From IMG/VR virus record IMGVR_UViG_3300044811_000050: a DNA stretch of 64,000 nt. One strand, written 5' to 3'. The translations under genes were made by a program, and so were the position numbers. Positions 4,518 through 58,686 of this stretch are shown here, piece by piece. The DNA is from a virus. The first letter of the stretch is position 1. Every line of letters starts with the position of its first letter. Below the pieces are notes generated by a model. It was not told where the DNA came from, searched no databases, and saw nothing but the letters and a program-made list of their open reading frames with translations.

Positions 4518-4558
4518 TGGCCTGGGTCTTCGTAGGAGGGGGACGAAGACCCAGGCCA
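4518..4558 (+). promoter_or_regulatory. Perfect 16-bp hairpin with SD-like loop (terminator or translational control)
   Basis: TGGCCTGGGTCTTCGT-AGGAGGGGG-ACGAAGACCCAGGCCA. Confidence 0.6.
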
Positions 4559-7458: not shown

Positions 7459-7491
7459 TCGAGCGGGGATCCACTACCCGGGGGCGCCGCC

Positions 7492-8340
7492 ATGCCCCGC
7501 CTACAGGAGATCACCATGCATGAGTTGCCGGCGCTACCCCGCGCCATTCCGATCTTGCCCACGGTCGACAGCGAACGGCTGCGCGACCTGCACCCCGGGC
7601 TGCCGGTCAGCCCCCGCGACTGCGTCACCTGCAAGGGCACCGGACAGTTCCGCTGGTACGACGAGGCTGGCGAGCCGACCGACTGGAAGTGCAACTGCGA
7701 GGAGCAGTTCATCCTGCACCGCTACTTGCTGGCTTCCGGGGTCGCGCTGCACTACCAGCGGCTGCGCTGGGATGACGCGGAAGGTGTCCCGAACGATGTC
7801 TTGGATGTGATCCAGGACTACATCGACAACTGCGATGCCTACGTACAGGCGGGGCTCGGCCTGGTGCTCTGGGGCAGGGTCGGTACCGGCAAGACGCTGC
7901 TGGCCAGCCTGCTGCTGAAGTCGCTGCTGGAGAAGGGCGTCCGGGGCCAGTTCGTCACCTTCCACACCATGCTGGACATGTTCACCGCCGGCTGGGAGCA
8001 GAAGGAAGCCAAGGTCTGGTTCGAGCAGCGGATCACCCACGCCGACGTGCTGGTGCTCGACGACATCGGCCGGGAGCACGAGGGCCGGCGGACCGCCATC
8101 GCCGAGTCGACCTTGGACCACGTGTTGCGCAGCCGGGTGGCCGCCGACAAGCCGACCATCATGACCACCAACCGCAGCCCCGACGAGCTGGGCACGCTGT
8201 ACTCCGGCAACGCGCTGAGCCTGCTCTCCGAGTCGGCCATCGTGAAGGAGTTCCGGGGCGCGGACTTCCGGCCCGAGCACCAGACCCGGAAGATCACCGA
8301 GGCCAAGGCCCGGCTGACCCGACCGATCGTGCTGTCATGA
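7492..8340 (+). CDS. dnaC: DnaC/IstB-like AAA+ helicase loader
   Basis: CxxC..CxC zinc motif, Walker A GRVGTGKT, Walker B VLVLDDIG, TIMTTN. Confidence 0.88.
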   Translation: MPRLQEITMHELPALPRAIPILPTVDSERLRDLHPGLPVSPRDCVTCKGTGQFRWYDEAGEPTDWKCNCEEQFILHRYLLASGVALHYQRLRWDDAEGVPNDVLDVIQDYIDNCDAYVQAGLGLVLWGRVGTGKTLLASLLLKSLLEKGVRGQFVTFHTMLDMFTAGWEQKEAKVWFEQRITHADVLVLDDIGREHEGRRTAIAESTLDHVLRSRVAADKPTIMTTNRSPDELGTLYSGNALSLLSESAIVKEFRGADFRPEHQTRKITEAKARLTRPIVLS

Positions 8341-26642: not shown

Positions 26643-26685
26643 AGGTTCTGTAAGGCACCACCAGGACCGAACCGGAGGTCTTCCG

Positions 26686-27180
26686 ATGACCCGCTACGAC
26701 GCGCAGAACCAGCCAGCCGATCTGTTCGACAGGTACGGCCTGTACGCCCGCTACGACGCGTCCAGCCAGACGTACGACCGGGACCGCGCTCGGAGTCGTC
26801 CCGTGCGCCAGGCCCGCCGGACCCAGCGCGCCGCCACCCCGAAGGGTTCGATCGTGGGGCGCCGGCTGTGGATCGTCGGCCTGCTGGAGCTGCTCTACAT
26901 CATCTTCTTCATCCTGGCGCCGGCCATGCAGGGTGCCGAGATGGCGGACGGCGCCACCGGCGGGGTCCTGGGCTTCCTGTTCTTCACCGCACTCGGCACC
27001 TTCGCCACCAGCTTCCTGGTGTGGTTCGCCCGCAGGGACGACGAATCGGGCGGCGTGTGGTCCCGCAACGCCCACACGGCGTTCCGGCTGGGCCTGCCGA
27101 TCATCGGCACCACCTACCTCGCCTACAAGGGCAGCGTGGGTGTCGCCCGGCACCTGCACCGCGTAATCACCAAGGACTGA
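26686..27180 (+). CDS. Membrane protein (about 3 TM)
   Basis: CCGAACCGGAGG leader before ATG 26686; three hydrophobic segments. Confidence 0.75.
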   Translation: MTRYDAQNQPADLFDRYGLYARYDASSQTYDRDRARSRPVRQARRTQRAATPKGSIVGRRLWIVGLLELLYIIFFILAPAMQGAEMADGATGGVLGFLFFTALGTFATSFLVWFARRDDESGGVWSRNAHTAFRLGLPIIGTTYLAYKGSVGVARHLHRVITKD

Positions 27181-28877: not shown

Positions 28878-29627
28878 GTGAGACACCTCAGCCAGAGCTG
28901 GCGGATGGCACGGGTCGGAGCCACCGGCGCGCGGTTCCAGCACTTTTTCCTGCCCGAGGACCCGGACGAGGCCCATCGCGCGTTGGTACACCTGACCCGC
29001 ACCGCGCACCGACGCGTGGCCGCCGGCAGCTACGAGCACGGCCGGCTGCACGACCTGGTGGCCAACGAGGGGTTCAGCCACCACCCGCTGCACGGCGCCG
29101 CGCCCAGCACCGGCTACATGGCCGCCTACGACGCCCCGGAGGGCTCCGGGCAGGCCGTGACACACCACATCAGCCAGATCACCCCGGAGCACATCGCGGC
29201 GCACCGAGCGGCCATCTCCGAGCACCTCGATAAGGGGGCTTATCAGGGCGGATGGCACGACACCGCCGACGGGAATGTCTACCTGGACGCCTCGCACCAC
29301 TTCGACGACAAGCATTCGGCGCTGAACTTCGCCGGGCACCAGCAGCAGAAGGCGATCTTCAACCTGCATGACTTCTCCGAGCACTTCCTGAACCCCCGGC
29401 AGGACCCGCTGGCGATGAAGGACCACGAGGCGTGGAAGGCCCGTTACGCCGACACCGGCACCGAGCCGCACCCGGCGTTCCACAGCTACGCGCACCGCTA
29501 CCCGAACACCCCCGAGCAGGACGAACATTGGAACCTGCACAGCAAGGGCGCGATGGCCGGCCGCCCGGTCGGGCAGTTCCGCTCCGCGCGCTACGTGGAA
29601 GATCAGCTCCGTAGGCGGCGGTCATGA
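28878..29627 (+). CDS. His-rich hypothetical protein
   Basis: Long ORF; GYMAA..YQGGWHD..VYLDAS..QKAIFNL core. Confidence 0.7.
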   Translation: MRHLSQSWRMARVGATGARFQHFFLPEDPDEAHRALVHLTRTAHRRVAAGSYEHGRLHDLVANEGFSHHPLHGAAPSTGYMAAYDAPEGSGQAVTHHISQITPEHIAAHRAAISEHLDKGAYQGGWHDTADGNVYLDASHHFDDKHSALNFAGHQQQKAIFNLHDFSEHFLNPRQDPLAMKDHEAWKARYADTGTEPHPAFHSYAHRYPNTPEQDEHWNLHSKGAMAGRPVGQFRSARYVEDQLRRRRS

Positions 29628-31633
29628 GGGTCGCTAGCAATGACCTGCCCGGTGGCGCGGAGTTCCACTTCACCCCGAGCCCGGCCCGACACATCCACCA
29701 CGAGCTGGAGCTGCATGCCCGGGGCCAGCAGCTGGGCAAGCTCTCCTGGGGCCAGGACGGCGATATCAGCGGCGTGGAGGTGCACCACCAGCACCGGCGC
29801 CAGGGGATCGCCACCGCGCTCTACACCCGGGCGCACGAGCTGTCCCGCGAGCACCGCATCGAGCCGCCCGGCGCCTCGGTCTTCCAGACCGGCGCCGGCC
29901 ACGCCTTCCGGACCAGCTTCGACGTGGGCGAGCGGCCCGACGTCAGCCACATCCCCACCCACCTGCACCGAGGCGCCGGGGAGCACGACACCGACCTGCA
30001 CGAGCACCTGATCAAACACCACTACCCCGCCTCGGCGGACATGGTGCACAGCTGGGACCAAGAGACCGCCGAGAAGGCCCACGACCAGATCAGCCGGTTC
30101 AGCCCGTGCGGCTGGGGCAAGACCGGAGCGATGGAGGGCGACGCGATGGCAAGTGACGCCGACCAGCTCAAGTTCCACCACGAGGAGTGGCAGTCCGGCG
30201 GCTCGCTCTACCCGAACGAGGAGAGGATCACCGCGCACCACCCGGAGCGCGGCGCGGTGGGCTCCGTGCACTTCCTGCGGGGCAAGCGGATCAACTCACC
30301 GATCCTGATCAAGAAGCTGGATATCGGCAAAGATCACCGGCGGCGCGGTTACGGCTCGGCCCTGATGGACCAGCTCCAGGCCCAGTACCCGAAGGCCAAG
30401 ATCAACCACGGGGACCGCACCGACGACGGCAAGGCCTGGTGGAAGAGCTACGGCCAGGGCGCGGACCGGCGAGGTCGGACCAGCAGCCGCCCTTTTGACC
30501 ATGCGGCACGACTCGGCGACGGCCGGATCTGCCAGGGCTGTGCCGGGATCGGTGAGCTGCACGACGGTCACGAGTGTGGAGCTTGCGACGGGTCCGGCCG
30601 CGACCCCGAGTGCATCTGCGGCCGAGAGGTGGCCAAGCAACCCGGCGAGGACTGGTGGTCGCACCTGGACGGCTCGATCAGCCACGACTACGAGGACAAG
30701 GTGCCGCAGGACGAGCACGGCCCCCTCGGGGTGGCCGACTGCATGCGGATGCTGGGCAAGACCGAGCTGCCTACCAAGAGGCTGTTCGGCCCGACCTACG
30801 GACTCGACCACCGGCTGTTTGACGGGGACTGCCTGCGCGACGACGTCACCGAGTACGTGCTGGGCACCCTGGGTCGGTTCTGGGAGCCGCTGTACGGGCC
30901 GAACTGGCGCAAGTGGGCCCGGGTGTACCTGGCCGGCTCGGAGGCCTCTGAGTGGACCTCAGAGACGCTGGAGGGCAACAACGACTTCGATGTGCTGATC
31001 GGCATCGAGTACGACGACATGCGCGACGACATGAAATCCCGGCCGGGGCTGGACACGCTGTTCGGGATGATGAGCGACGAGCAGGTCACCAACGCGCTGA
31101 ACCAGCAGTTCCGGGCCGGGCTGATCCCGCACACCGACCCGGTGATGATCTCCATCGACGGCCAGGAGACCGGCCCCTGGAGCAACACCTGGTATGTGAA
31201 CCAGGACAGCTGGGACATCACCAAGATCAAGCCCTACGCGGCCTACGACGTCACCAACCACCGGTGGGCGGTGCGCCCGCCGCACCTGCCGAGTTGGGAT
31301 ATCAGCCAGTTCCCCGAGGGCCACGCGCTGGTGCAGGAATGCAAGGCGGTGGAGGCCTACGTGCGCGCCGTGCTGCGCCTGCCCGAGCCTTACCGGGCCC
31401 AGCAGGCCGACTCGCTCTGGAAGCACCTGCACGGTGACCGCAGCCGGGCGTTCGGCCCGCAGGGCGAGGGCTGGTACGACCCGGGCAACGTGCTGGAGAA
31501 GTTCCTGGACCAGAAGGGCATCTGGGAGCCCCTCGCCCAGGCCCACTTCGACGCGGTGGCCGACCCCAGCCGGCTGCTCGCTCCGAGTGACTGGTCGAAC
31601 GACCCCGTCTCGGTTACGGCGCCGCCTCGTTGA
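29624..31633 (+). CDS. Multidomain protein: two GNAT domains, Zn-binding segment, Pol-beta nucleotidyltransferase
   Basis: VHHQHRRQGIATALY and IGKDHRRRGYGSALM acetyl-CoA motifs; CxxCxGxG twice; LAGS..DFDVLI. Confidence 0.75.
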   Translation: MRVASNDLPGGAEFHFTPSPARHIHHELELHARGQQLGKLSWGQDGDISGVEVHHQHRRQGIATALYTRAHELSREHRIEPPGASVFQTGAGHAFRTSFDVGERPDVSHIPTHLHRGAGEHDTDLHEHLIKHHYPASADMVHSWDQETAEKAHDQISRFSPCGWGKTGAMEGDAMASDADQLKFHHEEWQSGGSLYPNEERITAHHPERGAVGSVHFLRGKRINSPILIKKLDIGKDHRRRGYGSALMDQLQAQYPKAKINHGDRTDDGKAWWKSYGQGADRRGRTSSRPFDHAARLGDGRICQGCAGIGELHDGHECGACDGSGRDPECICGREVAKQPGEDWWSHLDGSISHDYEDKVPQDEHGPLGVADCMRMLGKTELPTKRLFGPTYGLDHRLFDGDCLRDDVTEYVLGTLGRFWEPLYGPNWRKWARVYLAGSEASEWTSETLEGNNDFDVLIGIEYDDMRDDMKSRPGLDTLFGMMSDEQVTNALNQQFRAGLIPHTDPVMISIDGQETGPWSNTWYVNQDSWDITKIKPYAAYDVTNHRWAVRPPHLPSWDISQFPEGHALVQECKAVEAYVRAVLRLPEPYRAQQADSLWKHLHGDRSRAFGPQGEGWYDPGNVLEKFLDQKGIWEPLAQAHFDAVADPSRLLAPSDWSNDPVSVTAPPR

Positions 31634-34564: not shown

Positions 34565-34606
34565 AGGTCGACCAAGCTCTTTCCGAACCGAACCGGAGGT
34601 TCTCTG

Positions 34607-38694: not shown

Positions 38695-38770
38695 GGGTCT
38701 GTAGCTCAACTGGCAGAGCACCGGTCTGAAAATCCGGAGGTTGGACGTTCGATTCGTCCCGGTCCCACCA
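38695..38770 (+). tRNA. tRNA-Phe(GAA)
   Basis: CCGGT-CTGAAAA-TCCGG; encoded CCA. Confidence 0.9.
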
Positions 38771-38837
38771 GGAATCCTTGTTGGAGTGCCGGAGGCATGA
38801 GTTAATGCTCTTGGCTTCGACCCCATGGAGGAAACAC

Positions 38838-39674
38838 ATGCCCCGATTCCGTCGGTTTCTGGCGCTCATTGCGGCGCCATTAATAGCCTTGACTTTGACC
38901 GCCCTTGTTGCCCCGGCTGCTTTCGCCGCTGACGAAAAACCCGGCATTGCCTTCGGTGCCCCGTGTGCCCAGGTCCAGATCATCGTCATCCCGGGCAGCC
39001 ACGAGACCAAAGAGTTGACCAAGATGGACAACGCCGCGAAGGGTGTCCTGGTCAACGTGGTCAGCACCCTGGAGGAGAGGTACCAACGCAAGGTCCGGGC
39101 GCACTACATCGGCTACCCGGCGAAGATCGCGTCGATCATCAACATCGGCAGCCAGAAAGATCCGATCGTGACGGTCAGCTGGGACTACACCCAGAGCAGG
39201 GCGAAGGGCTACCAGGCCACCTGGATGACGTTGAAGTACTACCGCAAGCAATGCCCGGCCACGAAGTACATCCTGACCGGGTACTCGCAGGGCGCGCACA
39301 TCGCGGGCGACCTCACCGCGACCATCTCGAAGGAGAACCAGCCGATCCCAGCCAGCTCGCTGATCTCGGTGCGGCTGCTCGCGGACCCCGCGCGCACCGC
39401 GTCCTTCTCCCGGCTGGTCGGGATGGGTACCGGCGGTAACGGTGGCGTGCTCGGGCACCGCACCTTCGGCTCCCTGAACAACCGGGTCACCGAGTACTGC
39501 GTCAAGGGGGACGCGATCTGCGACTTCACCCTGCGCAACCTGGTGAACTCCGCCGCTAACGGGGGTGGCACGCACACCCAGTACGACGGCACCTACGTCC
39601 CGGGCACGCAGACCACGATGACCATGCGGATGAAGGCCGACATCATCGCCGACGTGCTGAACGCTCGGCTCTAG
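38838..39674 (+). CDS. Secreted cutinase-family serine esterase
   Basis: GGAGG RBS, signal peptide AFA-A, CPATKYILTGYSQGA, LLADP, CVKGDAIC, HTQY. Confidence 0.9.
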   Translation: MPRFRRFLALIAAPLIALTLTALVAPAAFAADEKPGIAFGAPCAQVQIIVIPGSHETKELTKMDNAAKGVLVNVVSTLEERYQRKVRAHYIGYPAKIASIINIGSQKDPIVTVSWDYTQSRAKGYQATWMTLKYYRKQCPATKYILTGYSQGAHIAGDLTATISKENQPIPASSLISVRLLADPARTASFSRLVGMGTGGNGGVLGHRTFGSLNNRVTEYCVKGDAICDFTLRNLVNSAANGGGTHTQYDGTYVPGTQTTMTMRMKADIIADVLNARL

Positions 39675-40318: not shown

Positions 40319-40360
40319 CTGACGAAAACCCTTGGTGGTGTCAGGGTCATCGGGTACTGT
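40319..40360 (+). promoter_or_regulatory. Repeat promoter/operator element (consensus copy)
   Basis: CTGAC-GAAAACCCTTGGTGGT-GTCAG-N10-TACTGT. Confidence 0.85.
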
Positions 40361-42372: not shown

Positions 42373-42414
42373 CTGACGAAAACCCTTGGTGGTGTCAGGC
42401 TCGTCGTGTATCGT
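42373..42414 (+). promoter_or_regulatory. Repeat promoter/operator element
   Basis: CTGAC-GAAAACCCTTGGTGGT-GTCAG-N10-TATCGT. Confidence 0.85.
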
Positions 42415-43350: not shown

Positions 43351-43789
43351 GCGCAAGCATGATCTCGGTAGTCATGCGGATCGGGATTATCGGTATCGAA
43401 CCTGGAACAACATCAGAGGTCGATGCCTCCGCCCCTCCGATTCGGCTTGGCCCAACTATGGCGGCCGGGGGATCAGGATGTATGGGCCGTGGCAGGAAGA
43501 TCCAGCCGCGTTCATCGCCTGGCTTGACGAGCATCTGGGACCGCGCCCTGAAGGTCACACTCTTGATCGAATCGACAACGACGGTCACTACGAGCCCGAC
43601 AATCTCAGGTGGGCTACTCGGTTTGAGCAGGGGAGAAATACTCGGATGAACAAGATCACGGTTGAGATAGCCAGAAAAATCTTGGCTGATCCACGCACCT
43701 TGGTCGCGCTTGGTGAGGAGTACGGGGTTAGTCACGAGACCATTCGTAGAGTCAGATGTGGGACCTGGTGGGGATGCGATCAGATATAG
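43343..43789 (+). CDS. HNH homing endonuclease
   Basis: YRTWNNIRGRC..YGGRGI..TLDRIDNDGHYEPDNLRWAT; C-terminal HTH; lower GC. Confidence 0.88.
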   Translation: MGKRKHDLGSHADRDYRYRTWNNIRGRCLRPSDSAWPNYGGRGIRMYGPWQEDPAAFIAWLDEHLGPRPEGHTLDRIDNDGHYEPDNLRWATRFEQGRNTRMNKITVEIARKILADPRTLVALGEEYGVSHETIRRVRCGTWWGCDQI

Positions 43790-47484: not shown

Positions 47485-47741
47485 TGGGCAGCCTGTACCT
47501 GGTGGGCGGGGTGTCCGTGCCGGCGGCCATCACCTGGTTTGCCTTCAGGGAGGTCACCGTGAAGGTCGACTCACCGCCGCTGCCCCGGGAGAGGTTGGCC
47601 CGAGGTGGTCCGTTCGGGGCTCGACTGACCGAAGAGGACGGCACGATGCACCAGGGCCAGGCCTTCCTCACCCACTCCGAGATCACCCCCGAGCGGGAGC
47701 GCTACACGCTGCTGGTCATGGTCCAGGGATGGGAACCCTGA
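47484..47741 (+). CDS. Hypothetical protein
   Basis: TGATG coupling at both ends. Confidence 0.55.
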   Translation: MGSLYLVGGVSVPAAITWFAFREVTVKVDSPPLPRERLARGGPFGARLTEEDGTMHQGQAFLTHSEITPERERYTLLVMVQGWEP

Positions 47742-48505
47742 TGGCTATCCCCTGCAAGGACCGGGCCCGGCACCGCCCCACCGCGTGGGCGGTGCTCGAT
47801 CGCAACTGGTGCCGAGAGAGCAGCTATAGCCAGGGCTGGCCCACCCCGGGCGCGCACACCCTGGCTTGCTCGGTTTGCCATGTGGCGTGGCGCTCACGGG
47901 CCAAGTACGCGGACGAGCTGCCCACCGTCGAGGATGCCAACCCCATCGCGCGGAGGATCGCTGAGCTGGTCGAGGAGTACCCCCGGCTGGTCGAGCTGAC
48001 CTACTGGAACCAGCCGGCCGCGTTGGCCGGAGCCAACCCGTTCCTGCGCAGCGTCGGCACGCGGCTCACCTCCGGGAGCACGCTGAGCGGCAAGCAGATC
48101 CTCGTCGCGGACAAGATCATCGACGGCTGGGTGTGGCAGCTCAACGAGGCGGCCGAGCAGGCGGCGGTCATGCGGGCCCGCAGAGAGGCCCTGGGAGAGC
48201 GCCTGGCGCCCGTGGGCCCGCAGGTGGTCGTTGGCACCGTGGAGAAGGTCTGGACGCCGGAGCGGCACGCTGACGCTCTGGTGGACCCCCTGCCGAGGAT
48301 GGAGCTGCGCGCCGATCAGGGCTTCACCGTGGAGGTGACCGTGCCCAAGGTGCTGCGGCAGGCGCTCAAGCCGAGCCGGCTGGTGGGCCGGCGGGTGGAG
48401 CTGCACGCCAAGCTGAAACGCAATCCGGATGATTGGACGATGGCCTGGGGCAGCAACCCGTTGCAGAGGACCGCGCTGCTACCCAGCAACGCCGCTTTGC
48501 TATGA
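47741..48505 (+). CDS. Hypothetical protein with C-terminal OB-like domain
   Basis: CSVC motif; TLSGKQI; VVGTVEKV. Confidence 0.65.
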   Translation: MAIPCKDRARHRPTAWAVLDRNWCRESSYSQGWPTPGAHTLACSVCHVAWRSRAKYADELPTVEDANPIARRIAELVEEYPRLVELTYWNQPAALAGANPFLRSVGTRLTSGSTLSGKQILVADKIIDGWVWQLNEAAEQAAVMRARREALGERLAPVGPQVVVGTVEKVWTPERHADALVDPLPRMELRADQGFTVEVTVPKVLRQALKPSRLVGRRVELHAKLKRNPDDWTMAWGSNPLQRTALLPSNAALL

Positions 48506-48611: not shown

Positions 48612-48646
48612 GAGCCGGCTCCCAGGAAGGCCCTGGGAGCCGGCTC
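48612..48646 (-). terminator. Intrinsic terminator between convergent genes
   Basis: Perfect 15-bp stem GAGCCGGCTCCCAGG/CCTGGGAGCCGGCTC with short U tract on the minus strand. Confidence 0.75.
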
Positions 48647-48652
48647 TACGTA

Positions 48653-49399
48653 TCAGGACTTGCCGCGTAGCTTGCGCTGGCTGCGGCTGTGCGCGCCCTG
48701 CTTGGCTGCCTTGAGCCACTCCGGGAAGGCCGAGTCGAACAGCAGCGGCGGGAAGTCGTCGTCGACCCGCCGGCCCATCTTCTGGGTCTGCGCGGTGGTG
48801 CGCTCCTGCACCCAGTAGCCGCCCCGGCTCATCGTGAACGGCCGCTTGACCTTGCCCAGGAAATCGAACTGATCACCCTTGGCGGCATTCGGGTTGAACC
48901 AGTTCGCGGTGACGAAGTTGGACACCGAGATCTTCTGGCCGCCCACCGCGATGTCGTAGCTGTCGGACTGCACCGGGTCGCCCACCTCCCAGGCCACCAG
49001 GAAGCCCCGACCGGAATCCGCCCAGCCCGAGCAGAATTCGTCGCAGAACATCTCCAGCACCTCGTGGGAAATGACGCTGGAGGCGGACAGCTGGCCGGTC
49101 AACTTCCCGCCGCCGTTGTCCAGCACGGGCTTCACCGAGGACACCCCGTAGATGTGGTCGTTGGCCTCGGAGGTGTGCCAGCCCAGCGCCTGCGGATCGT
49201 CCTGGACATCCACCACGTCGATCACCTTGGTGTTCTTCTGGGGAGTCTTGGTGAACACCACGGGGACCGGGGCGTAGCCGGTCAGCGGAGCGCAGTCCCG
49301 GGAGATCTGAAGGGCGCAGGCATTGGCCACCAGCTGCACCTCGGCATCGGCCATCAACTTGCTGTGATTGGTCAGGTAGATCGTCGGATCCATGGGCAT
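48653..49399 (-). CDS. Putative zinc metallopeptidase-like protein
   Basis: ALGWHT, SHEVLEMFCD, WEVGDPVQ; GC3-rich on minus strand; own terminator. Confidence 0.7.
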   Translation of the reverse strand: MPMDPTIYLTNHSKLMADAEVQLVANACALQISRDCAPLTGYAPVPVVFTKTPQKNTKVIDVVDVQDDPQALGWHTSEANDHIYGVSSVKPVLDNGGGKLTGQLSASSVISHEVLEMFCDEFCSGWADSGRGFLVAWEVGDPVQSDSYDIAVGGQKISVSNFVTANWFNPNAAKGDQFDFLGKVKRPFTMSRGGYWVQERTTAQTQKMGRRVDDDFPPLLFDSAFPEWLKAAKQGAHSRSQRKLRGKS

Positions 49400-49484
49400 C
49401 GGGGAGGCTCCAGGGTCGGGGGATGAACCACCGGGAAGATAACCGGATGATCCTGAGGATGGCCCGCCGGCTGGTCAAAGTCCG

Positions 49485-49526
49485 TTGACGAAAACCCTTG
49501 GCCCTGTCAGGGTGCTCGTGTAATGT
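49485..49526 (+). promoter_or_regulatory. Repeat promoter/operator element
   Basis: TTGAC-GAAAACCCTTGGCCCT-GTCAG-N10-TAATGT. Confidence 0.85.
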
Positions 49527-49532
49527 GAGCCC

Positions 49533-49681
49533 TGTTCGGAAAACTCCACAGAGCGAAGCCGCAGCATGGCCGTGAGCGTCAGACACCCTGAGGGGCCAAC
49601 CTGGCAATGCTCGGGAAGACGTGGCCGACATACCGGAATCACACCCCCTGCTCCCGCTTAGCTCTTGGAGTTTTCCGAACA
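49533..49681 (+). ncRNA. Candidate ~150-nt structured RNA beginning at predicted +1
   Basis: Perfect 16-bp terminal stem TGTTCGGAAAACTCCA/TGGAGTTTTCCGAACA plus nested stems. Confidence 0.6.
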
Positions 49682-49711
49682 CCTGAGTCCGAACCGCACC
49701 GGAGGTTCCCC

Positions 49712-50653
49712 GTGAACGTCACCACCGCTTCCCCCGCCGAGATCGACACCGAGATCTACCGGCTGGAGGTCGAGCTGGGCCGCGCGAGCGTCAGCGTGGA
49801 CAGCGCCCGCGACATCGTGCGCAGGGCCATCGGCCAGGAGGTCACCCGCGAGCGCAGCATCGTCCGAGGCCGCAGCCAGCACCGCGAGGTGTGGCCGACC
49901 AGCTGGGTCACGGCCGAGCAGACCGCCCGCGAGCTGGACCCGGCCACCGAGTCCGCCGACTGGCGCCTGGTGCACTACAGCGGCGTCAAGACCGTCGGTG
50001 CCGCGCTGGCCGCCCTGGACGCCCTGGAGGCCAAGCGGACCGAGCTGCGCGCCGCGCTGGCCCCGCTGTACGCCCGCTACAACGCCGAGCGCTGGAGCCG
50101 GGTCTTCCTGGTCACCAACAGCAACGGGCACGTGCACAGCCACACCCGCTGCCGCAACTGCTACGACACCACCACCTACTACTGGGTGACCGAGCTGTCC
50201 GGCGCCACCGACGCCGAGGTTGTCGCCCAGGCCGGCGGCCAGAGCTGCCTCACCTGCTACGACTCGGTCCGCGAGCAGATCGACGCCAACCGGGAGTGCC
50301 GGATCGAGGAGCCGGCCAAGCGCAAGTCCCGCGAGGAGCGCGAAGCCGCCGCCAAGGCCCGTGCCGAGAAGGCCGCCGCCAAGGGCATCACCACCCCGGA
50401 CGGGCAGCCGCTGGTCATCCAGAAGCGGGGTGACCGCCACGGCGAGACGATCAAGACCGCGCGGGCCGCTCAGATCGAGCTGGTGAGCTTGCTCTGGTAC
50501 GCCAAGCACTACGGCGCCAACTCGGCCCAGCCGGAGGCGGTGGCGGCCCTGGAGGCGGCCCTGGCCCACAAGAACGGCACCACGGTGGAGCAGGAGCGCG
50601 AAGCCGCTCAGGTGCGCCTGGCGGCCCGCGAGAAGCGGGAGGCCCGCTACTGA
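49712..50653 (+). CDS. Hypothetical phage protein with zinc motif
   Basis: Leader CCGAACCGCACCGGAGG; WSRVFLVTNSNGHVHSHTRCRNC..CLTC. Confidence 0.75.
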   Translation: MNVTTASPAEIDTEIYRLEVELGRASVSVDSARDIVRRAIGQEVTRERSIVRGRSQHREVWPTSWVTAEQTARELDPATESADWRLVHYSGVKTVGAALAALDALEAKRTELRAALAPLYARYNAERWSRVFLVTNSNGHVHSHTRCRNCYDTTTYYWVTELSGATDAEVVAQAGGQSCLTCYDSVREQIDANRECRIEEPAKRKSREEREAAAKARAEKAAAKGITTPDGQPLVIQKRGDRHGETIKTARAAQIELVSLLWYAKHYGANSAQPEAVAALEAALAHKNGTTVEQEREAAQVRLAAREKREARY

Positions 50654-51391: not shown

Positions 51392-51433
51392 GTGACGAAA
51401 ACCCTTGGCGCTGTCAGGCTACCCGTGTAATGT
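51392..51433 (+). promoter_or_regulatory. Repeat promoter/operator element
   Basis: GTGAC-GAAAACCCTTGGCGCT-GTCAG-N10-TAATGT. Confidence 0.85.
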
Positions 51434-51474
51434 GAGCCCTGTCAGCAAGACCCGCGCCGAACCGGAGGCACGAG

Positions 51475-52020
51475 ATGAGCACCACCACCCGCCGTCAGAT
51501 TGGTCGCAACACCAACCGCGAGGGCCAGATCGCCAAGGCCATCGAACTGATCGCGGAGATGCGCGAGATCAACCCCGAGTGGGTCGAGGAGCGGCGCGCC
51601 GAGATGAACGGCCGCTGGACCCAGGGCACCTGCACCTTCGAGTACGTCTCCGATCAGATCACCGCGATGATCGACGCCAAGCGGGCCAGCCGCCAGGTCT
51701 CCGCCCACCAGAACGTCCCGATGGTTTCCTCCGGCCGCTACGCCTTCGGCGAGGAGGGCAACGTCAAGTACTACCGGGTGGTCAATGACGGAGGCAGCTA
51801 CAACGTCTTCCGCTACCAGTCCGACACCCAGCACCAGATGACCGCCCCCATCGCCATCCTCAACGTGCTCCGCGCCATCGCCCGGGACACCGAGCCGGTC
51901 GCGGCTTTGCGGTGGGCCACCGGGATGAAGCGCTGCTGGGCCTGCGGCAAGAAGATCCACGACGAGAGCAACCCCTACTACAGCCAGGGTCTCGGACCGG
52001 ATTGCGGCAAGAAGGGCTGA
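51475..52020 (+). CDS. DUF6011-like zinc-finger protein
   Basis: CWACGKKIHD..S..GLGPDCGKK. Confidence 0.7.
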   Translation: MSTTTRRQIGRNTNREGQIAKAIELIAEMREINPEWVEERRAEMNGRWTQGTCTFEYVSDQITAMIDAKRASRQVSAHQNVPMVSSGRYAFGEEGNVKYYRVVNDGGSYNVFRYQSDTQHQMTAPIAILNVLRAIARDTEPVAALRWATGMKRCWACGKKIHDESNPYYSQGLGPDCGKKG

Positions 52021-56989: not shown

Positions 56990-57046
56990 GGACCTGTTCA
57001 CCACGCACTCACTACCGACTCACCAGACCGAACCGGAGGTCTTCCG

Positions 57047-57193
57047 ATGACTAGGCGCGACAACGACAGGGCGCGCGGGCGCCTCTACCCCCAGTCCCTC
57101 GGCACCCGCTACGGCTGGCTGCTGATCCTCCTCAGCTGCCTGGCCATGGCCGTGGTGGGCGCGGTGGCGCTGCACGCGGCGGGTGTCAGGTGA
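57047..57193 (+). CDS. Small 1-TM protein
   Basis: Leader before ATG 57047. Confidence 0.6.
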   Translation: MTRRDNDRARGRLYPQSLGTRYGWLLILLSCLAMAVVGAVALHAAGVR

Positions 57194-58144: not shown

Positions 58145-58686
58145 CCGGCGCGCCTACGCACGGGCACACCCGTGGTCCCGTTGGGGGCATACGGACGTCT
58201 CGCACCTACAACTCGTGGCTTGCGATGCGGCAGCGCTGCTACTACCCGAACCACGCGAAATACCCGAAGTACGGCGCGCGGGGGATCACGGTCTGCGATC
58301 GGTGGCTTGAGTCGTTCGACGCGTTCCTCACCGACATGGGTGAACGGCCTGAGGGTCGCACGCTTGATCGAATCGACAACGCCGGCAATTACGAGCCTGA
58401 TAACTGTCGGTGGGCAACGCCCGCTGAGCAGACCGCGAACCGCACCATGGTCCCGTTCGATCCGGCGACGCGGCCGGCAGACCCACTTGGGCACAAGTAC
58501 GCCGGTGCCAATCTGGCTAACCGCAGCAACGGGAGTCGTCGCTGCCAGGCGTGCTCGCGGGCCCGTGCCCGAGTTGATCGAGCACGTGCTCGCGGCATCA
58601 CGCTCGACTTTCGAACGGAGGCGCACCGCGCCTATATCGAGATCATGGGAGAGGAACCGCTCCCTAGCTCTAGCTCTACGATTTGA
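58141..58686 (+). CDS. HNH homing endonuclease
   Basis: TYNSWLAMRQRC..YGARGITVCDRW..TLDRIDNAGNYEPDNCRWAT; C-terminal GHKY..RRCQAC. Confidence 0.9.
   Translation: MTGAPTHGHTRGPVGGIRTSRTYNSWLAMRQRCYYPNHAKYPKYGARGITVCDRWLESFDAFLTDMGERPEGRTLDRIDNAGNYEPDNCRWATPAEQTANRTMVPFDPATRPADPLGHKYAGANLANRSNGSRRCQACSRARARVDRARARGITLDFRTEAHRAYIEIMGEEPLPSSSSTI

Follow-up and report, generated by a model that had tools for sequence, protein, structure and literature searches.

A 149-bp inverted-repeat element in one leader of a repeated phage promoter: a candidate MITE-like or foldback insertion

The DNA that we analyzed (hereafter the window) is a 64 kb stretch of an actinobacteriophage-like genome with a G+C content of 66.7%. 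It contains a replication module with genes for a helicase, a 5'-3' exonuclease, a DnaC/IstB-like loader, a primase, DnaE, and RecA. The IstB-like match at 7459-8340 is read as a DnaC-type loader because it is located in this module. The window also contains a tRNA array with 21 tRNA matches, followed by a run of small gene cassettes that are each headed by the same repeat of approximately 45 bp. The protein encoded directly 3' of the tRNA array (38730-39674) has a cutinase domain (PF01083, E 3e-15) and is similar to the LysB esterases of phages whose hosts are mycolic-acid bacteria. A 672-aa protein encoded at 29615-31633 has two GNAT acetyltransferase-like regions and is unusually large for a phage GNAT protein. 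The positions 43544-43630 and 58345-58431, 14.8 kb apart, form an 87-nt direct repeat with 76% identity that may represent two related inserted genes.

The leader examined here lies between two divergently oriented genes. The gene on the minus strand (48653-49399) is predicted to encode a protein of 248 aa with no Pfam or PHROG family. This protein has 125 homologues that include proteins from Streptomyces, Embleya, Kitasatospora, and Yinghuangia at 42-45% identity. The host of the phage is uncertain because the LysB-like cutinase contrasts with these named homologues, all of which are from Streptomycetaceae. Between this gene and the convergent gene at 47729-48505 (plus strand) is a perfect 15-bp stem with a 5-nt loop (48612-48646) that resembles a bidirectional terminator, and similar perfect hairpins occur at 2860-2895 and 4518-4558. 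The gene on the plus strand (49712-50653) is predicted to encode a phage protein of 313 aa that matches phrog_15500 (E 7e-33) and phrog_2433, with no Pfam family and no relative in the PDB. Its homologues, at 51-78% identity, are in metagenomic contigs. A Shine-Dalgarno (SD) sequence, GGAGG, is present at 49701-49705 and is followed by a GTG start codon at 49712 (together 49701-49714). Homologues that begin with MNIT or VNVT at the equivalent place support this start.

Upstream of the 313-aa gene and in the same orientation is a copy of a dispersed repeat (TTGACGAAAACCC; 49485-49526) that is a putative promoter/operator. This copy has a -35-like hexamer, TTGGCC (49498-49503), a 17-nt spacer, and a -10-like hexamer, TAATGT (49521-49526). 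The repeat occurs 9-11 times in the window, always on the plus strand, where 0.01 copies are expected by chance, and it also precedes homologous genes in related phages. We call it a promoter because of its general architecture, in which a TTGGYN hexamer is followed by a TAnnnT hexamer after 17 nt. A simple scan for the sigma-70 consensus made no promoter call at the 49485 copy.

The distance from the -10-like hexamer to the start codon is 185 nt in the 49485 cassette compared to 32-43 nt in 21 others, which are 12 other cassettes of the window and nine from related contigs. This agrees with the original prediction, made from the sequence alone, that the spacing at this cassette is about 185 nt. 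A sister cassette on the same strand (51392-51477) has the same promoter and an ordinary 41-nt leader. It is identical to the 49485 cassette over exactly 19 nt (49517-49535 and 51424-51442), after which it continues with a normal leader; the prediction had likewise described this cassette as sharing a sequence and then lacking the element. Across the 21 cassettes, which come from four phages, the spacing is very uniform and is mostly 38-43 nt. Most leaders also contain a half-site-like motif, TGTCAG or TGACAG, at about +3 to +10, and the extra sequence occupies exactly the position of this motif. Examples of the promoter repeat in the window are at 40319, 41151, 42373, 43797, 46334, 49485, and 51392, and there are others in the related contigs L018-L023.

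The extra sequence is an element of 149 bp with 59.7% G+C (49533-49681) that is bounded by a perfect terminal inverted repeat. It begins 7-10 bp downstream of the -10-like hexamer, where transcription of the leader is predicted to start. The outermost 16 bp of the two arms (49533-49548 and 49666-49681) are 100% complementary, as had been predicted along with a start 7 nt after TAATGT, and they enclose 117 nt. Arm-to-arm alignment extends the left arm by 18 imperfectly matched nt (49533-49566) and the right arm inwards to the same extent (49648-49681), with 30 of 34 positions identical, three mismatches, and one indel. The identity is thus perfect at the outer ends and decays inwards. Between the arms is an interior of 81 nt (49567-49647) that has no significant structure or similarity; blastn and tblastx comparisons with the window and the related contigs gave only chance matches. 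No other perfect inverted repeat of at least 16 nt with a loop of more than 20 nt and a span of up to 400 nt is present in the 64 kb, and 30 shuffled sequences contained a mean of 0.03 such repeats. The element is non-coding and its length falls within the 50-800 bp of MITEs, while its 16-bp perfect ends exceed the minimum of 10-15 bp for MITE terminal repeats. The only open reading frame inside it is 31 codons long, has no SD, and has its ATG within the stem. We considered whether this reading frame is an upstream ORF, or whether the 313-aa protein has an N-terminal extension from an ATG at 49607, and rejected both since the homologues start at the equivalent of 49712 and the ORFs have no SD.

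The same promoter repeat is found in four contigs from related phages (L018, L019, L020, and L023). The copy that adjoins the divergent gene in L023 and L019 is 87-91% identical to that of the window over 103-139 nt. A protein that is 89% identical to the divergent-gene protein (P0016) anchors the orthologous locus in L023. By alignment, these two promoters are clearly orthologous to the promoter of the window, and in both contigs the promoter and leader are intact and short (39 nt). The leader in L023 reads GTAATGTGAGCCCTGTT-AGCC-AGTCCGAACCGCACCGGAGG, and both flanks are common to the window. At the position of the four nucleotides AGCC, the window has 149 nt (49537-49685), a net gain of 145 bp. 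The homologues of the 313-aa gene in L018, L019, and L023 have their own promoter copy with a 40-nt leader, and the element is absent from the leaders of this gene in all four contigs. Because the closest relatives found have the same promoter and the same gene with short leaders, the alignments show an insertion that is specific to this lineage, with a net length of +145 bp. This bears out the proposal that extra sequence had been inserted, since both the sister cassettes and the orthologous cassettes of all four contigs are without it. Presence/absence polymorphism at orthologous sites, as found here, is also one of the features that define MITEs.

The window differs from its relatives in a second way. 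In the relatives, 2-5 small genes encoding proteins of about 60-135 aa, together with a second promoter copy, lie between the divergent gene and the homologue of the 313-aa gene (890-2128 on the minus strand of L023, 1636-2540 of L019, and 1110-2705 of L020), and these are missing from the corresponding region of the window (49400-49712). The leader of the window is chimeric. As far as the SD it is a leader of the first type, and its 5' portion agrees with the first of the two L023 leaders (AGTCCGAACCGCACC). It then passes into the beginning of the distal gene, and the coding start agrees with that of the gene located three genes further on in L023. The two leaders of L023 share an identical 28-nt stretch around the SD, and the join in the window falls inside this stretch. 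From these alignments, the loss of the small genes is consistent with a deletion by recombination between leader repeats. The palindromic insertion is a difference separate from this deletion, or possibly one that is linked to it. We rejected the idea that the element is a decayed remnant of the small genes, as neither blastn nor tblastx detected similarity between them. Other leader repeats occur in the window: identical 26-nt stretches of SD leader (GACCGAACCGGAGGTCTTCCGATGAC) are found 30 kb apart at 26665-26690 and 57026-57051, with near copies at 34586 and 42047. Repeated SD leaders such as GACCGAACCGGAGGTCTTCCGATGAC would be substrates for the type of deletion that appears to have occurred at the 49485 locus.

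The original prediction described the element as a highly structured RNA. The whole element folds at -69.5 kcal/mol, with z = -4.6 compared to shuffled sequences, and the pairs AGAGC/GCTCT, AAGC/GCTT, and AGCA/TGCT that the prediction listed are present in the minimum-energy fold. The description is overstated, as the 81 nt between the arms fold no better than shuffled sequences (plus strand, z = -0.06; minus strand, z = +1.39). The interior fold is also ill-defined, with a frequency of 0.008 for the minimum-energy structure. The fold signal comes only from the terminal arms. The minus strand (-74.6 kcal/mol) and the plus strand (-68.8 kcal/mol) have two G-U pairs each, and because the two strands fold alike there is no sign of selection on the transcribed strand. 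By the generic criterion for structured RNA, which combines interior folding beyond chance with a preference for the transcribed strand, we found neither property. The rod-like fold is an automatic consequence of the inverted ends. The element does not have the appearance of an RNA that selection has shaped.

Searches of Rfam found no family at the gathering score and nothing relevant at E values up to 10, in line with the earlier remark that no match to a known family could be made. The best match was to a plant miRNA hairpin (E 0.14) and only reflects the long stem. When the full leader was folded, the element closed on itself and the SD, 20 nt downstream, was unpaired with the element. We found no terminator-like site after the stem. 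Because the SD is unpaired with the element and there is no terminator-like site, a riboswitch or attenuator reading is unsupported, and an intrinsic terminator or attenuator was rejected for lack of such a site. A retron msr-msd was also considered and rejected: there is no reverse transcriptase (RT) gene, the downstream gene (phrog_15500) has no RT domain, and the upstream gene has no family. The prediction that the element is a non-coding RNA or a riboregulator of the downstream gene is therefore unsupported, given the lack of an Rfam match, the chance-level interior, the absence of strand asymmetry, and the free SD.

We looked for further copies of the element and for a parent element. There is no second copy in the rest of the window, and BLAST searches of 50,697 phage records and 72,556 plasmids returned no similar sequence. 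In IMG/VR, neither protein searches nor searches for the inverted-repeat pair or the promoter pattern found relatives. A scan for the exact inverted-repeat pair in 185,579 species genomes (GTDB) and 241 million metagenome records (JGI contigs) gave 16 loci, all of which were unrelated and consisted of simple GGAAAAC-type repeats or coding DNA. BLAST searches were also made against approximately 800 actinobacterial genomes (401 of Streptomycetaceae and 401 sampled at the class level), with a Streptomyces genome reached via a homologue of the divergent gene. These gave only chance fragments of 22-49 nt from different parts of the query, as did the three unpublished genomes in the class-level set (G432, G652, and G755), where the fragments were at chance level; none of our conclusions depends on these three in particular. 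Two small actinobacterial genomes had 26 nt in common with the right arm at a site within a purH-like coding region, and this match was dismissed as chance. When a 15-mer from the repeat end was searched with one mismatch allowed, no genome had more than two isolated matches. An insertion sequence sharing these ends was not found in the window, the phage and plasmid records, IMG/VR, the GTDB species genomes, the JGI contigs, or the approximately 800 actinobacterial genomes. The alternative raised in the original prediction, a multi-copy MITE with target duplications, was likewise not found, and the collections searched contained no second copy. The candidate target duplications are CC(C/T) around an element with TG...CA ends, CG around a shorter element, and CCTG offset by 2 nt, and each of these needs an extra indel relative to the empty site in L023. 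The TGTT at the outer end of the left arm is native leader sequence that is also present in L023.

We hold, with about even confidence, that the element, at the predicted start of the transcribed leader, is an orphan, non-autonomous MITE-like or foldback insertion or else a palindromic fragment that was captured. Several observations argue for this reading. These are the intact short leaders of the L023 and L019 orthologues and of the homologous gene in L018, L019, and L023; arms that are perfect outermost and decay inwards, as in transposon ends; a fold signal that is confined to the ends and alike on both strands, with no RNA family; no credible coding capacity; and a size, repeat length, and non-coding nature that fit the working definition of prokaryotic MITEs. 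Against it are the lack of a second copy or parent insertion sequence in the collections searched, the lack of a clean target duplication, and the lack of a transposase among the 28 proteins of the window that were scanned. In addition, with native TGTT at the left end, microhomology-mediated capture or in-situ inverted duplication fits as well as transposition. A non-mobile rearrangement scar, in which template switching or microhomology-mediated end joining either generated the inverted repeat in situ or captured a foreign fragment, is an unlikely but distinct explanation in which the same event would also have removed the small-gene cassette of the relatives. Because the left arm starts with the native TGTT, native sequence is present in inverted form at the right end, and a paralogous leader at 42373 has TGTTCG. 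Together with the chimeric leader joined within the 28-nt stretch identical in both L023 leaders, the lack of a clean target duplication, and the lack of other copies in the collections searched, this argues for a scar. Against a scar, the interior of approximately 115 nt matches neither the small genes of the relatives nor anything in the window, and recombination between the identical leader repeats explains the deletion without any insertion. Lastly, the presence of the element in a single lineage could reflect an assembly artefact, to which we give almost no weight. A Logan contig from run SRR24887493 is identical over 6314 bp that include the element, although it may share the sample of the window and so is perhaps not independent, and a 149-bp insert with a unique interior is not typical of an assembler chimera.

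The remaining explanations concern what the element does. It is possible, if doubtful, that it has been exapted, regardless of its origin, as a cis-acting leader module whose duplex of approximately 30 bp has been retained for its effect on the expression of the 313-aa gene, either as a 5' stabilizer against RNase E/J-type decay or as a putative RNase III processing site. The first nucleotide of the stem is 0-2 nt from the predicted +1, the duplex is longer than two helical turns and leaves the SD free 20 nt downstream, and the loss of the small genes before the 313-aa gene means that its expression context has changed here. For the Correia elements of Neisseria, binding by RNase III with cleavage or protection is documented (PMC2649163). 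On the other side, the closest relatives have the same gene and the same promoter without the element, the interior structure is at chance level, and the direction of any effect is not predictable. We consider it quite improbable that the element is a new kind of mobile RNA-hairpin module that targets the transcription start, or a third, TGTCAG-like operator half-site, of the phage regulon and gives an early mRNA a fully base-paired 5' end. With such an end, the message could escape the 5'-end-dependent nucleases of the host or its RNA-sensing defences, or RNase III could release a stable 150-nt double-stranded decoy. Highly improbable is a trans-acting phage non-coding RNA that is freed from the leader and acts as a rod-like decoy similar to 6S or Y RNA, as the original prediction proposed, or a ligand-sensing riboswitch. 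A long closing stem with an internal loop directly behind an early-gene-like promoter is in its favor, whereas no 6S, Y RNA/YrlA, Ms1, or riboswitch model matched at E values up to 10, the interior is unstructured, no homologues were found in the collections searched, and no terminator or processing signal follows the stem. A closing helix of 30 bp is also atypical for aptamers, and there is no expression platform, with the SD never paired with the element.

If the element is a MITE-like or foldback insertion, it would have landed in one copy of the repeated promoter of the phage, in the leader of the 313-aa gene. We infer from the sequence where transcription starts, how the element might move, and how it might affect expression. 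Should the promoter be active as predicted, the mRNA would begin with a closed hairpin in which a near-continuous duplex of about 30 bp caps a loosely folded loop of approximately 80 nt. About 20 unpaired nt and then the free SD would follow. The hairpin would be expected to protect the 5' end of the mRNA from 5'-end-dependent RNases or to be cleaved by RNase III. We do not expect it to switch translation, and its effect could be neutral. The closed module leaves the SD unpaired, as would fit a tolerated insertion.

The element resembles several known systems in part. MITEs are known in viral genomes but are rare, occurring in 0.01% of viral sequences in one survey (PMC11602168). Like the MITEs of that survey, the element is short (149 bp), non-coding, and intergenic, has terminal inverted repeats of at least 16 bp, and is present or absent at orthologous sites, in this case in a phage genome. 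Unlike them, it is present as a single copy with no clean target duplication of 2-10 bp, and has no related copy or autonomous insertion sequence in the collections searched. Among mycobacteriophages, the MPME1 and MPME2 elements are also small insertions with inverted ends that are present in some actinobacteriophages and absent from close relatives. MPMEs are about 440 bp long, contain a small ORF, and recur in many phages. Our element had no BLAST similarity to any of the phage records searched.

In its expected mode of action, the element has its closest analogues in the Correia elements of Neisseria and the ERIC/IRU elements of Enterobacteria, which are approximately 100-155 bp long and have long inverted ends. 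When such elements are located in 5' leaders, they are co-transcribed and form long hairpins that can be cleaved by RNase III or that alter mRNA stability. The resemblance is functional only: the element has no sequence similarity to either family in the searched collections and is not a member of them. A genome can contain hundreds of Correia or ERIC elements, whose conserved cores include IHF sites, and Correia elements have a TA target duplication; none of these features is seen here. The predicted hairpin is also similar to the RNase III hairpins of the T7 R sites and the lambda N leader in being an irregular duplex of at least two helical turns in an early-type leader with a free ribosome-binding site downstream. 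Those sites are conserved in their phages, whereas our element is absent from the closest relatives and its duplex is a prediction. With 6S RNA and the bacterial Y RNA YrlA it shares a long closing helix and an internal loop. It differs from these RNAs in having no covariance-model match, no conserved bubble, no Ro-binding helix, and no conservation, and in being embedded in an mRNA leader. Because there is no sign of selection on the RNA and no relatives of the element were found, no new RNA class is revealed.

If the reading of the element as a MITE-like insertion holds, it would join the few MITE-like insertions on record for phage genomes. It would also provide a small, clean natural experiment in which sibling phages have the same promoter and gene but differ in the presence of a 30-bp hairpin at the 5' terminus. 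This contrast could serve to measure the effects of a 5' duplex on the fate of mRNA in actinobacteria.
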